Below, in pieces: positions 11,442 through 15,374 of a DNA stretch of 15,374 nt (positions within the stretch are counted from its first letter, which is position 1; each line of letters starts with the position of its first letter). The position numbers and the translations under genes are program-made. The stretch is from Pseudomonadota bacterium (GTDB taxonomy: Bacteria; UBA10199; 2-02-FULL-44-16; JBDRGF01), in the NCBI GenBank assembly GCA_043818055.1, contig JBDRGF010000135.1:1-15374 (forward strand), written 5' to 3'. A model generated the notes under the pieces. It had not been told where the DNA came from and did no database searches. It saw only the letters and a list, made by a program, of their open reading frames with translations.

Positions 11442-11542
<101 letters not shown>

Positions 11543-11732
11543 AAATTTTCAAAAGTCTACAGTTGTCTGGGGTTAATGTATCCATCTGAAAAAAGCAATG
11601 CAAAAAATTGACAATTGTTGATAGTACAGTATGTAGTATGTGGTATGAAATACGTTAAGCGTCAGTCGGAGTCAAGTGGCTCTTGCGCTTCACGCTCCAC
11701 GGGTGGACGCTTCACGATTATTAGGAGAATAT

Positions 11733-12797
11733 ATGAATGAAACTTTTTCACAAATCTTAAAGCAGGTCTATCTTGGAAATTCAGTGCAGGCATATTTAAT
11801 CGCCCTTGCAACATTTCTTATAGCCCTGATCCTTTTTTACATCGTCAGGGTAGTCATATTGAGCAAATTGTCGAAACTCTCAAAGCTCACAAAATTCAAA
11901 TACGATGAGATCATCATACGGCACCTTCGATTGCTGAAAACCCCTGATTTTGTCATCTTTTCAATCTATATTGCCGCTCAATCTTTGACTATAGCTCATC
12001 TGTTGGAAAGTGTTATCAGCGGCATATTCACCATCCTCATCGCATATCATCTTGTAAAAATGAGCTATGACCTCATAAGAGAGTTCATCACCGCAAAAAT
12101 ATCCGGGGATGAACATGTCGATCCGGCCAGAGTTTCAGCCAGCAAGAACATACTCATCCTGATCAACTGGGGGATCTGGATTGCGGCGACACTCTTCGTC
12201 CTGAATAATTTAGGTTTCAATATCACGACAGCCATCGCGGGGCTCGGCATCGGCGGTGTGGCTGTGGCTTTGGCTGCCCAGTCGATACTGAAAGACGCCT
12301 TCTGCTCGCTCACCATCTATCTGGACAAGCCGTTTGTGGTCGGAGATTTTATAATAGTCGGAGATAAGATGGGTGTTGTGGAGCACATCGGAATAAAAAC
12401 TACTCGCGTACGATCGCTTCAGGGAGAGCAACTCGTCTTCGCAAACGGCGACCTCACAGACAGCCGCATCCAGAACTTCAAGAGGATGGAGATGAGGCGA
12501 GTCCCATTTTCCATCGGAGTGGTCTATGGAACACCGCTTGAAAAGCTCAAGAGAATACCCATGATCATAAAGGAAATCGTTGTAAACCATAAAGATGCGA
12601 CCTTCGACCGGGCGCATTTTAAGAGCTATGGTGATTATAATCTAGAATTTGAGATCGTCTATTTCGTCCATAGCAACGATTACAACAAATACATGGATAT
12701 CAACGAGAACATAAACCTCGCTATCTATGAAGCCTTTGAAAAAGAGAAGATCGAATTCGCCTTCCCGACACAGACTATTTTTATGAATAAAGAATAG
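11733..12797 (+). CDS. Small-conductance mechanosensitive channel, MscS family
   Basis: Several N-terminal TM segments, TM3 AGLGIGGVAVALAAQ, DKPFVVGDFI, GVVEHIGIKTTRVRSLQGE, IEFAFPTQT. SD AGGAG precedes ATG 11733. Confidence 0.93.
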   Translation: MNETFSQILKQVYLGNSVQAYLIALATFLIALILFYIVRVVILSKLSKLSKLTKFKYDEIIIRHLRLLKTPDFVIFSIYIAAQSLTIAHLLESVISGIFTILIAYHLVKMSYDLIREFITAKISGDEHVDPARVSASKNILILINWGIWIAATLFVLNNLGFNITTAIAGLGIGGVAVALAAQSILKDAFCSLTIYLDKPFVVGDFIIVGDKMGVVEHIGIKTTRVRSLQGEQLVFANGDLTDSRIQNFKRMEMRRVPFSIGVVYGTPLEKLKRIPMIIKEIVVNHKDATFDRAHFKSYGDYNLEFEIVYFVHSNDYNKYMDINENINLAIYEAFEKEKIEFAFPTQTIFMNKE

Positions 12798-12890
12798 CGA
12801 TCAGCTAAAAACAAATAAAACACTCATAATTTCCCGCCTTTTTTAAAAAAAAGAAGCAATTAACCGGCTAATCGAGTCACGTGTGAGTGG

Positions 12891-13517
12891 CTAGAGATGA
12901 GGTATAAATTTTAGGGAGAAGGAGATGGAGGCGAGAGTTTTATGAAGACGCGAGAGTCTGCGGAGAAGGGTTTTTTTATGGTGATAATCCATTTTGTGAT
13001 TGCAGAAGAGACAATCCTGGGGGAGGTTGATGAGTTCACTGATGCGAAGCCCTGTAAATCTTAAGAGGAGGAAGAATTTGGAGTAGAGATTGTTGAGATT
13101 GCGCCAGCGATCGATGAGGAGTTGATCGGTTTGAGAGGAGAGAGGTTTTGGGAGATACTCAGGGACTTTTGGGAGGAGCTTTCTGTCGAGGAGAGATAAT
13201 AGGGATTCATCGACAGAATCCTGCTCGACTTCCCAGGCTAAATATTTTTTAACGGCGAGAAGGTAATTGACCCTGCTGTAAGGAGCGAGTTTTTTATTGT
13301 TCAGATAGAGTATGTAATTTTGAAGTTGAGATTTGGACAGATTAGCCAGATGTTTTTTGGAGATGGGAGTTGTTTTAAAGATGAGCTTCAGATAGGTATG
13401 GAAGTGGGATAGGTTAGAGCGGTAGGCATTGACCGTCGATGGTTTACACCAGGCGAGTTGGAAATCGAGATAAGCCAGCATGCTATTAGAGAGATTTTTT
13501 GTTTTCAATTGATCCAT
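12891..13517 (-). pseudogene. Second tyrosine recombinase, lacking most of the catalytic domain
   Basis: SAM-like core-binding domain (KPSTVNAYRSNLSHF...LAPYSRVNYLLAVKKYL), LPKPL, and box I LLRFTGLRISELINL. No K, HxxR, H/W or Y motifs before the stop. Confidence 0.7.
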
Positions 13518-14538
13518 AGTTACTTTCTAATGAGTTAATAGCCTTGTGGTATTCTTGGGCGATATCGGCGGTTGACATATGGATATAATCCATAGTGATT
13601 TCGATATCAGTGTGGCCCATAAGCTTTTGAACAACGGGGAGAGAAACACCCTGAGTGATTAAATTGGTGCAGAAGGTATGACGGAAGAGGTGAGGATGAG
13701 CAGATTTAAGAGCATGCCTTCTACGATATCTAAAAAGAGTTCTTAATCCGACATTGGTCATAGGCCGACCGCGGGAGATACCTTTAAGAGAGACAAAGCA
13801 TCTATTGTGGGAGGCGTGCGGACGTTCGTGGTGAAGATAGAAGGTGAGGGTATTTTTTACCGATTCAGAAATAGGGAGGAAACGTTCTTTTTGTCCTTTG
13901 CCTCTTATCTTGAGCTTATCATCATTAAAATCGATATCGCTGATTTCCAGAGCGAGCACCTCACAGGATCTTAAACCACAGAAGAGCATGAGATAGATGA
14001 TGGCGAGATCACGATACTTTTTCAGGCTGGCGATGAACTTCTTGATCTGAGTTGGAGATAGCGGAATAATGAGAGAAGCGGGAACTTTAACAGATAGAGA
14101 GTTTTTTTTCTTCTTGATGCGTACGTTGCCGAGGAGGGCTTTATTTCTAACGCCTTTATAGAAGCCTGTAGTTGATGAGGATAGAAAAAGTTTATCACCT
14201 AAGCCCTCTTTATAGAAATTGAGGAAGGCTTTGATTACAGCAATACGGCGGTTGATAGTTCTGGGAGCAGCATTAAGCTTTCTTAAAGCCAGAACAAAAT
14301 CGATACCATCATCCAGTCCACCAGGAGAAATATTCTTTGAGTTCAGAAATCGATAGAAGCTGAGCAGATCGTAGGCGTATGCGATTAGAGTAGAGGTAGT
14401 CATACCCGTAACGAGTCTGTTTTGAAGGAATCTCTCAACCTCCCGAATGACGTCACCGTTATCATCATAGAGAATACACGGGATATCCTTTGGTGGGAAG
14501 GCGAGATGGTCATCGTTAGTAAAGCGAAGTATGGTCAT
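13486..14538 (-). CDS. Tyrosine recombinase/integrase with complete catalytic set
   Basis: LMLFCGLRSCEV (R), RGKGQKER (K), HPHLFRH (HxxR), LMGH (H), ITMDY (Y). SD AAAGGAG; ATGA overlap with the upstream ORF. Confidence 0.93.
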   Translation of the reverse strand: MTILRFTNDDHLAFPPKDIPCILYDDNGDVIREVERFLQNRLVTGMTTSTLIAYAYDLLSFYRFLNSKNISPGGLDDGIDFVLALRKLNAAPRTINRRIAVIKAFLNFYKEGLGDKLFLSSSTTGFYKGVRNKALLGNVRIKKKKNSLSVKVPASLIIPLSPTQIKKFIASLKKYRDLAIIYLMLFCGLRSCEVLALEISDIDFNDDKLKIRGKGQKERFLPISESVKNTLTFYLHHERPHASHNRCFVSLKGISRGRPMTNVGLRTLFRYRRRHALKSAHPHLFRHTFCTNLITQGVSLPVVQKLMGHTDIEITMDYIHMSTADIAQEYHKAINSLESNYGSIENKKSL

Positions 14539-14969
14539 TCGAAGCTCCTTTGGCTGATGGTAAAGCAATCACGAGTATAAAGGAGAGGGGCAATCGATCG
14601 ATTCTCTTTTGCAAACTTAGGGAAGTTCCAGAATTTCATTTGTTTTTCGGTAAGTTGCAGAATATCGATTCTCTTTTGCAAACTAAAACCCGAGATGGAT
14701 TTTCTCAAATTAGATTGAGCCCGATTGTTGTTAAAGTAGGTTGGATGACCGAGGCGATATTGTTTCCAGTAACCGCGATGATTCTCTCGCCAGTCCTGCA
14801 GCCCTTTGAGATAGTCATACCTGTTCTTTTGCTTCCAGCGTTTGTGACTGAAAAGTTTTTGCTGATGTTTACATTTCCCGTCTCCACAGGAGACCTGCCG
14901 ATCACCTGAACGTGGATGGGGAATGAACATCTGTTTACACCACGGACATCTCTTCTTTCTTCTTCTCAT
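14535..14969 (-). CDS. Hypothetical basic protein with N-terminal Cys4 (CPWC...CGDGKC) putative zinc finger
   Basis: MRRRKKRCPWCKQMFIPHPRSGDRQVSCGDGKC followed by Trp/Arg-rich helical pseudo-repeats. Its stop overlaps the integrase start. Confidence 0.75.
   Translation of the reverse strand: MRRRKKRCPWCKQMFIPHPRSGDRQVSCGDGKCKHQQKLFSHKRWKQKNRYDYLKGLQDWRENHRGYWKQYRLGHPTYFNNNRAQSNLRKSISGFSLQKRIDILQLTEKQMKFWNFPKFAKENRSIAPLLYTRDCFTISQRSFE
14597..14684. repeat. Perfect 21-bp direct repeat ATCGATTCTCTTTTGCAAACT
   Basis: Copies at 14597-14617 and 14664-14684; period 67 bp. Confidence 0.9.
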
Positions 14970-15374
14970 CTGTGAATGTTTCTCAGAAGAGGAAACATTA
15001 CGAAAGATAACCGGCGATGAGAATCTCGTTTCTTATAAGTGCTTTTACTGTTGCATGATTTTTGTCACCCTCACTCCCCGCTAATCACCCACTCAAATCG
15101 TCAGTGAGCCAAAAAAGATCACACAAAAACCCTCATTCCCCCTCAAAAATAATTCTTCCCAAATATCAATGGGTTAAACCTTACGCTCCAAATCACCTTG
15201 TTTTTACATCAATCTTTTCCCAATTATTAGCCGCCTTAATCCGACAGCGAAAAAAGAGAGAAGCGAGTAAGAGCATGAAAGATATGAGAAAGCACAAGTA
15301 AGGGTGATGAAAAGGATTCACCGGATGGGTGAAAGATTAGGGGAGTTTAAGGACTTCACCAGAAATTGTTCAGG

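Follow-up and report, generated by a model that had tools for sequence, protein, structure and literature searches.

A damaged copy of a probable Tn554-related multicopy element with likely sigma-28-type promoters as its targets

The window analysed here is the whole of contig JBDRGF010000135.1, 15,374 nucleotides long, from the Pseudomonadota bacterium assembly GCA_043818055.1 (G000:C135, with G000 denoting the genome that holds the window). Beyond the host gene mscS, three open reading frames (ORFs) run leftward on the minus strand: ORF A encodes a small protein with four conserved cysteines (Cys4), ORF B a TnpA-like tyrosine recombinase, and ORF C the remains of a TnpB-like one. Rechecking the coordinates upheld an original prediction, made from the letters alone, of an ATGA overlap at 14535-14538 and a 32-nt overlap at 13486-13517. 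We consider it fairly probable that positions 12860 to about 15233 represent one damaged and non-autonomous copy of a multicopy element that measures ~3 kb, has recombinases related to those of Tn554 and ends in inverted TTAACCGG repeats, and that this element likely moves through a circle into the -35 box of likely sigma-28-type promoters. Table 1 lists the features.

The damaged copy and its boundaries

The frame of ORF B spans 13486-14568 on the minus strand and would give 360 aa from a TTG or 350 aa from the ATG at 14538, which is preceded by a ribosome-binding site. Its catalytic set is complete (R200, K224, H293, R296, H319 and Y328, TTG-start numbering), and these R, K, H, R, H and Y residues are invariant in all 33 aligned sequences, comprising the window protein and 32 of 120 homologues among the matches listed. 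The predicted tandem of tyrosine recombinases therefore stands for ORF B, and fails for ORF C, whose catalytic half has been deleted in frame. About 175 N-terminal residues are joined to the final 33, with a loss of about 170-175 codons at 12992/12993. What remains comprises the core-binding domain with the first catalytic Arg; the catalytic Lys, the HxxR, the His and the Tyr are gone. The final 33 residues match those of a sister copy (G000:C131) exactly; that copy shares 137 bp at this end with the window copy and retains the deleted part, including HRLRH, LGH and the Tyr. Full-length homologues measure 315-399 aa (median 376, in a search that permitted up to 672), and each catalytic motif is retained in 118-120 of 120.

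An assembly artefact was considered for this deletion and ruled out, because contigs from runs X1 and X2, which belong to two studies, span the junction and otherwise show no difference. The undeleted form also appears in one run, as a loose end. The ORF C of the window is thus predicted to be catalytically dead. Since this active site is lost and the right end is split by an insertion sequence (IS), the window copy is probably immobile, and its value lies in the family it represents.

Table 1. Features of the window that bear on the element, by position
Feature	Position	Strand	Basis
mscS host gene, left flank, outside the element	11676..12797	+	ORF list and annotation
A/T-rich left target flank ending in an A8 tract, downstream of mscS; upstream part of a likely promoter	12841..12852	+	A+T content
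7-bp spacer NNN-GCAA (here GAA-GCAA), target-derived side, predicted crossover region	12853..12859	+	9 L junctions
L end: TTAACCGG inverted repeat and conserved CTAATCG-GTCA	12860..12879	+	9 loci in G000; also G041, Tn554 and Mycobacterium/Rhodococcus Tn554-like left ends
ORF C, TnpB-like tyrosine recombinase with in-frame internal deletion	12891..13517	-	208 aa; junction 12992/12993
ORF B, TnpA-like tyrosine recombinase, intact	13486..14538 (ATG start)	-	Catalytic residues, homologues, tree
ORF A, Cys4 (CxxC...C...C) accessory protein of a family without a name	14535..14969	-	144 aa
21-bp direct repeat, copy 1, within ORF A, putative protein-binding site	14597..14617	.	Repeat search; G088
21-bp direct repeat, copy 2, within ORF A, other reading frame	14664..14684	.	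Repeat search; G088
Second TAACCGGC, probably leader-internal (chance or R-end vestige), not a working boundary	15008..15015	+	Leader lengths
End fragment of a presumed ISL3-type element within the leader	15033..15110	+	85-86% identical to ends on C24, C3 and C151
Outer leader and inner part of the R end (TTATTAG-CCG at 15224-15233)	15111..15233	.	Comparisons with C33 and G041:C2
End of a presumed IS1380-type element inserted in the R end	15234..15374	+	47-aa transposase stub

The left (L) end recurs elsewhere in the genome. GCAA-TTAACCGG occurs nine times in G000, and its reversed control not at all. Two occurrences are of the window type (C135 and C131); the other seven lie about 130 bp from contig ends and represent one collapsed sister element, which, by reading of those contig ends, starts with a Cys4 gene and ends in an ORF C-like tail. 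GCAA is constant and NNN variable at all nine L junctions. Six opposite (right, R) ends read CCGGTTA[A/T]-NNN-GCAA[C/T], so that G000 offers nine L and six R junctions, mostly at contig ends; one contig of another genome, G087:C77, carries both ends with 2.2 kb between them. L and R ends have 8-10 bp in common. The family ends are 8-bp inverted repeats ([T/A]TAACCGG) beside a 7-bp spacer NNN-GCAA. Allowing one mismatch in the L-end search returned noise.

These ends replace the boundaries first proposed, namely direct TAACCGGC repeats framing an element at 12861-15015 and serving as its crossover core. Both copies exist, 22 nt past the last stop and 38 nt ahead of the first start, and about 10 bp in the region at 15008 look like the palindromic R end of G088:C217, so a vestigial end there is conceivable. 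Such a pair is weak evidence, since 814 of 5000 random pairs of 100-nt windows at equal distance (16%) share an exact 8-mer. In addition, every other copy compared has inverted ends with GCAA outside, and the family's R-end sequence is located at 15224-15233 in the window. The left 8-mer belongs to the inverted-repeat end, which bears out the weight given to TAACCGG and places the left boundary correctly to within a base or a few. The right 8-mer is most likely internal to the leader, because a boundary there would leave a leader of about 40 nt against about 110-345 nt in relatives; the right boundary probably lies ~220 bp further out. The crossover is assigned instead to the spacer NNN-GCAA outside TTAACCGG, so the empty allele that was predicted is not the one now expected. 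The direct-repeat model is largely refuted, and we regard it as very improbable.

Comparison with contig C33 of G000 locates the R end. C33 matches window 15198-15246 at 94%, and the complete R end there is split by a miniature inverted-repeat transposable element (MITE) with a 4-bp duplication, at the same position as the IS in the window (15234). The same R end stands unbroken ahead of a Cys4 gene on G041:C2. The window's right end is therefore probably at 15224-15233, split by an IS that we take to be of IS1380 type; its transposase stub has no Pfam match. The fragment within the leader is presumably of ISL3 type, judging by the adjacent transposase and the terminal motif. Position 15110 was considered as the right end, as a metagenome contig (L002) begins 2 bp inside it, and was ruled out because the sequence matches the ends of another IS family.

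Kinship and distribution of the recombinases

Both recombinases resemble those of Tn554-like elements, at 28-35% identity for TnpA-like and 27-37% for TnpB-like proteins. For ORF B, identity is 28% with TnpA of Tn554 itself and 33-35% with the TnpA-like proteins of actinobacterial elements. The full-length ORF C aligns to TnpB from about residue 180-220 onward. A tree built after removal of three long-branch and three redundant rows and trimming of long rows groups the ORF C family with TnpB (100/97) and places ORF B among the TnpA rows (88/88); an earlier, first tree had not settled the position of ORF C. The best plasmid matches of ORF B that were opened are TnpA-like genes, and among the 17 plasmid matches of full-length ORF C, all five that were opened or tied to an opened locus are long TnpB-like genes. 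The L end agrees with this kinship: it matches the left end of a Mycobacterium Tn554-like element over 15 bp and Tn554 over TTAACC, and a terminus of the TTAACC type was seen at four of the seven Tn554-like loci examined.

Within the phylum, 3 of 93 genomes gave a match to ORF B at E 1e-60, 3 of 93 a match to full-length ORF C at 1e-25, and 6 of 93 a match to the Cys4 profile; these are lower bounds, since repeats often remain unassembled. Conservation of a Cys4-recombinase-recombinase order, proposed at the outset as a check, holds. The order is A-B-C in G088:C217 and A-B in G041:C38, and in G087:C77 A is followed by X, a small helix-turn-helix-like gene that is fused to the end of B, and then by C. 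G087:C77 and C162 (L084 and L086) are internally deleted derivatives with four genes (Cys4, X, B and C), and internal deletion seems common in this family. A wider protein collection gave 415 matches for ORF B and 249 for ORF C. In 48 of 71 cases (contigs of at least 2.2 kb, median 2.94 kb) the exact length of the longest contig is common to an ORF C and an ORF B row, against 1-9 of 120 in shifted controls, which indirectly suggests that the two genes lie together in a ~3-kb repeat unit across the collection. Homologues of ORF B and ORF C (P0103 and P0400) are labelled archaeal by their sources. Scans with ORF B of genome contigs and with ORF A of metagenome contigs each returned one locus, distant and identical, respectively. 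The viral contig scans yielded one spurious match without an ORF, one chance repeat match in a methylase gene, one null scan and 79 distant integrases.

By analogy, the element appears to work like a member of the Tn554 family, although it is not filed as one. Shared with that family are the tandem of TnpA-like and TnpB-like recombinases, the first in the catalytically intact TnpA group; a TTAACC(GG) terminus adjoining a target-derived 7-bp spacer; and target specificity without target duplication, judged from the one locus with both junctions (G087:C77). Unlike Tn554, the second recombinase measures ~376 aa instead of 610-830, lacking the N-terminal 180-220 aa, and is followed directly by the L end instead of TnpC/DUF6262. 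ORF A has no DUF6262 match and no similarity to Tn554 TnpC (E 0.13). Moreover, a Cys4 gene comes first in the element, and the gene block is inverted, with the terminus downstream of ORF C and not upstream of tnpA. The targets are many promoters, in contrast to radC or one gene, and there is no cargo. The long TnpB, the TnpC and the gene polarity of Tn554 are thus all missing, and for this reason the element is kept apart. Tn554 relatives without TnpC are listed in Van Houdt 2012 (PMC3414803).

The SE/GInt elements also have two catalytic tyrosine recombinases, short terminal inverted repeats, a spacer asymmetry between junctions and no mobilisation genes. They are set apart by description: the intA-tfp-intB-srap set is absent here, with three genes in G000 and G088 and a different four-gene order in G087, and no Tfp or Srap is recognised. 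The present element is 3 kb long against 6-58 kb, reaches at least seven copies per genome where SEs rarely exceed two, and lives in another host phylum. RIT elements share the size of about 3-3.5 kb, the three overlapping co-oriented ORFs and the multicopy, cargo-free state. Unlike them, it has two recombinases instead of three, ORF A being none, and terminal repeats of 8 bp (8-10 bp in common) against 28-34 bp. The plasmid matches opened are Tn554-like pairs, and the two pHG1 stretches examined yielded no RIT proteins. The prediction of a minimal tyrosine-recombinase transposon, free of cargo, for which neither RIT nor textbook Tn554 is a good match is thereby borne out, with the addition that its recombinases and terminal motif are relatives of those of Tn554. 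Neither this layout nor insertion aimed at a promoter -35 box was found described in the literature searched, which consists mostly of open papers without their supplements. Judged from gene content and ends, the element appears to be a real, undescribed and widespread variant of the Tn554 kind.

Insertion beside a likely promoter motif

The right flanks of the element run GCAAC-T-tract and then NCCGATAA. G000 holds 81 sites of the form GCAAC-N14/15-NCCGATAA, at spacers of 14 or 15, compared with 0-4 at each other spacer from 8 to 23. Of these 81 sites, 51 are followed within 200 nt by a ribosome-binding site and a same-strand ORF; the figure is 10 of 81 when the opposite direction is scanned and 47 of 400 at control GCAAY sites. 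The motif GCAAC-N14/15-NMCGATAA is present in all 93 genomes of the phylum at 4-88 copies each (reversed control, 0-4). The exact -10 box stands at five of the six R junctions in G000 but at only 81 of 11,659 GCAAY sites. Junctions were counted only if tied to element genes or common leaders, and six such junctions outside G000 (G088:C217, G041:C2 and four in G087) show 0, 1, 1, 2, 2 and 3 mismatches, where the background for two or fewer, measured in G000, is 5.7%. Run X1 contributes one extra flank with the -10 box that is absent from the assembly. On its own, the R-end pattern shows no enrichment in the phylum, with 30 matches against about 35 for the reversed control; because the control is as frequent as the pattern, 19 of 25 pattern matches outside G000 were set aside. 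On the left, A+T content averages 83% in 12 L-junction flanks, 76% at unoccupied promoters and 57% in the genome. Altogether, the junctions make a strong case that insertion of the element family would be promoter-directed.

The motif is likely a phylum-wide sigma-28-type promoter with a non-canonical -35 box. Like sigma-28 (FliA/WhiG) promoters, it is bipartite and tightly spaced, lies ahead of genes and carries a -10 box of the GCCGATAA kind; GCCGATAA is given as the sigma-28 -10 box, matching this half of the motif (PMC12784957). The -35 half differs, with a GCAAC-T-tract instead of TCTAAAG, and the cognate sigma factor is inferred; a FliA/WhiG-like sigma factor is encoded at G000:C90 among unnamed genes. 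No paper on a Bdellovibrio FliA motif was found in the literature searched.

Insertion leaves the -35 and -10 boxes in front of the host gene, and the element genes point away from it. In the proposed route, the TnpA-like ORF B and the TnpB-like ORF C would join both ends across the 7-bp spacer NNN-GCAA to form a circle, which would then recombine with NNN-GCAA-C at a promoter. The four shared bases would permit strand exchange and rebuild GCAAC, so the host gene would keep both boxes, with transcription of the element directed away from that gene. At the R end, three variable bases would likely be imported from the earlier site, as happens in elements of the Tn554 family and in SEs. Reading of the target (core, flanking A/T tracts and -10 box) likely lies with the recombinases themselves, possibly aided by the host sigma factor.

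The triplets bear on this importation. At G087:C77, ACA on the left differs from TCC on the right, so a target-site duplication is ruled out at this one testable locus. L-side triplets vary like those of unoccupied promoters. The R-side triplets of G000 follow the element subtype exactly (TAG twice, TTA three times) and so travel with the element. A conservative cut-and-paste route with lambda/Tn916-like double-strand exchange, in which NNN belongs permanently to the R end and the promoter is left empty on excision, would produce this linkage, and TTA is indeed common to the R ends of G000:C33, G041 and G047. The four G087 copies have four different NNN, however, and two of them, with just 3 differences in 108 leader bases, disagree at two of the three NNN positions. 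The triplet TAG, rare at promoters (1 of 65), is also the target-side L triplet of the sister copy C112. Furthermore, the closest relatives are reported to carry the spacer over (PMC10214605, PMC12486829), and the latter describes for Tn552-II a 7-bp att with a brought-in 7-bp i-att. Cut-and-paste with a fixed triplet is quite unlikely, and movement through a circle with an imported spacer remains the preferred reading.

Several observations weigh against the combined reading of element, route and target. One R junction in six (C94) has no -10 box, and that of G087:C77 has three mismatches to it. The published sigma-28 -35 box is TCTAAAG against the GCAAC-T-tract of the motif (PMC12784957), and the best host match to FliA_WhiG scores 138.6-139.9 bits against a cut-off of 189.6; for these two reasons the sigma-28-type name is offered as a likely assignment only. 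The linkage of NNN to subtype in G000 fits a fixed end as well as a footprint. Neither a circle junction nor an empty allele, both proposed as checks from the outset, was seen in two lay-outs of four runs each, a search of contigs with patchy cover that used 5 of 10 listed runs and had no cover of the C30 flank. The branch uniting ORF B with TnpA has moderate support (88/88), and the trees contained no RIT or SE proteins. Finally, the window's right flank beyond the IS at 15234 lies outside the contig and could not be located elsewhere in the assembly, and no intact three-gene copy with both flanks was recovered.

The same promoters also receive other elements. Among the 81 strict sites in G000, five carry the end of this element 4 nt before GCAAC (counted from CCGGTTA), 11 carry another element at offset 0, directly before GCAAC, and seven carry an IS1380-type end 12 nt before it; several other such ends have no motif. 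We take the offset-0 element to resemble a group II intron by its end motifs, and the Rfam group II intron model gave no match to it. Since the IS1380-type and offset-0 families use the same motif, elements come to be nested at window 15234, on C33 and on C18. The fixed offsets point to one landmark shared by three unrelated mobile families. The two other families occur on contigs C14, C16, C17, C18, C20, C28, C33, C60, C111, C125, C130, C156, C164 and C165 of G000.

A shared landmark raises the question of whether the host chooses the target, with a sigma-28-type RNA polymerase at the promoter, or the DNA that it bends or opens, positioning these recombinases as well as the two unrelated families. 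Occupancy of the strict sites by all three (5, 11 and 7) would fit, as would the observation that the repeats in the Cys4 gene differ between G000 and G087 at the same target, so that Cys4 specificity does not explain target choice. Yet each family might read the DNA motif alone, the presumed intron by base pairing, and the C94 copy inserted at a site without a -10 box. Choice by the host polymerase is thus unlikely, and reading of the target by the recombinases themselves is preferred.

The Cys4 protein as a possible portable head module

ORF A has no match in Pfam or NCBIfam, although its family has 1,489 representatives at E 0.001 or better; the Cys4 pattern is present in 136 of the best 150 of these 1,489. 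The Cys4 proteins compared here all keep four Cys, a Tyr, a Trp and a YW pair. The predicted structure has a mean predicted local distance difference test (pLDDT) score of 69 and a predicted template-modelling (pTM) score of 0.42. It found no Foldseek match at E 0.001 and no VIA match at Z 5, and its atlas matches are unnamed; none of these structure searches shows a new fold.

Related genes head other kinds of mobile modules. Eleven plasmid records match the Cys4 protein weakly (E 1e-5 to 9e-3), and of four loci opened, three have the Cys4 gene ahead of serine recombinase-ParB-RepB and one ahead of X-IstA-IstB; G056:C214 likewise has the order A-X-IstA. Cys4 genes with internal repeats were observed at L018, L020 and L021 (plasmids), L019 and L103, where they head serine recombinase-ParB-RepB modules and IS21-type elements. 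The IS21-type elements so headed have an extra small helix-turn-helix-like gene. Nothing relevant was found in the literature searched on IS21 with an extra zinc-finger ORF.

The two 21-bp repeats within ORF A are part of a pattern. In G088, 20 bp of the window repeat are identical and the 67-bp spacing is the same, and eight of nine Cys4 genes have two or three direct repeats with spacings of 67-81 bp, similarly placed relative to the gene start and often in different frames (0-7 of 200 in codon-shuffle controls); the ninth gene is a fragment at a contig end. Repeat type tracks the Cys4 protein and not the recombinase: the window repeats resemble those of the serine modules, and the G087 repeats share their 5' part with the IS21 repeats of G056. 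We infer that the Cys4 protein likely binds these intragenic repeats and, as an accessory or regulatory factor, takes the place of TnpC. A role as target reader, which the original prediction had suggested, is unlikely because G000 and G087 have different repeats but a common target.

Two Cys4 genes show a change of frame. At the right end of G000:C30 (L027 1860-1885), the Cys4 ATG of the seven-copy sister is one base out of frame across an A8 run that is the same in contigs of two runs, either by slippage or as a shared break, and the Cys4 gene of G041:C2 likewise changes frame.

The family may be useful as a system. How Tn554 transposes is reported to be unresolved (PMC10214605). The 3-kb version described here has neither cargo nor TnpC, a short TnpB and dozens of natural targets in each genome; as a minimal test system, it could show what makes a pair of recombinases necessary and by what means the spacer travels. 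Insertion ahead of the promoter core would let the element spread without severing host genes from their promoters, and targeting and rebuilding the -35 box of one promoter class would amount to a safe-harbour strategy. Additionally, the Cys4 family, for which there is no Pfam model, connects three kinds of recombination machinery. The most far-reaching version combines all of this: a widespread, undescribed Tn554-like branch that uses a whole sigma regulon as a safe harbour by rebuilding the -35 box, is placed by the host sigma-RNA polymerase (also the landmark of two unrelated families), and carries a portable Cys4 head module, with binding sites in its own gene, that is shared with serine-recombinase and IS21 elements. 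As a whole, this picture is doubtful.

Other recombinase genes and one RNA gene were noted in passing. G000:C47 has another tandem of tyrosine recombinases, and G000:C72 a frameshifted integrase adjoining a Cys-rich transposase-like ORF. Within the window, a small signal recognition particle RNA gene lies upstream of dnaX at 11443-11538 on the minus strand (Rfam RF00169, 47.3 bits).

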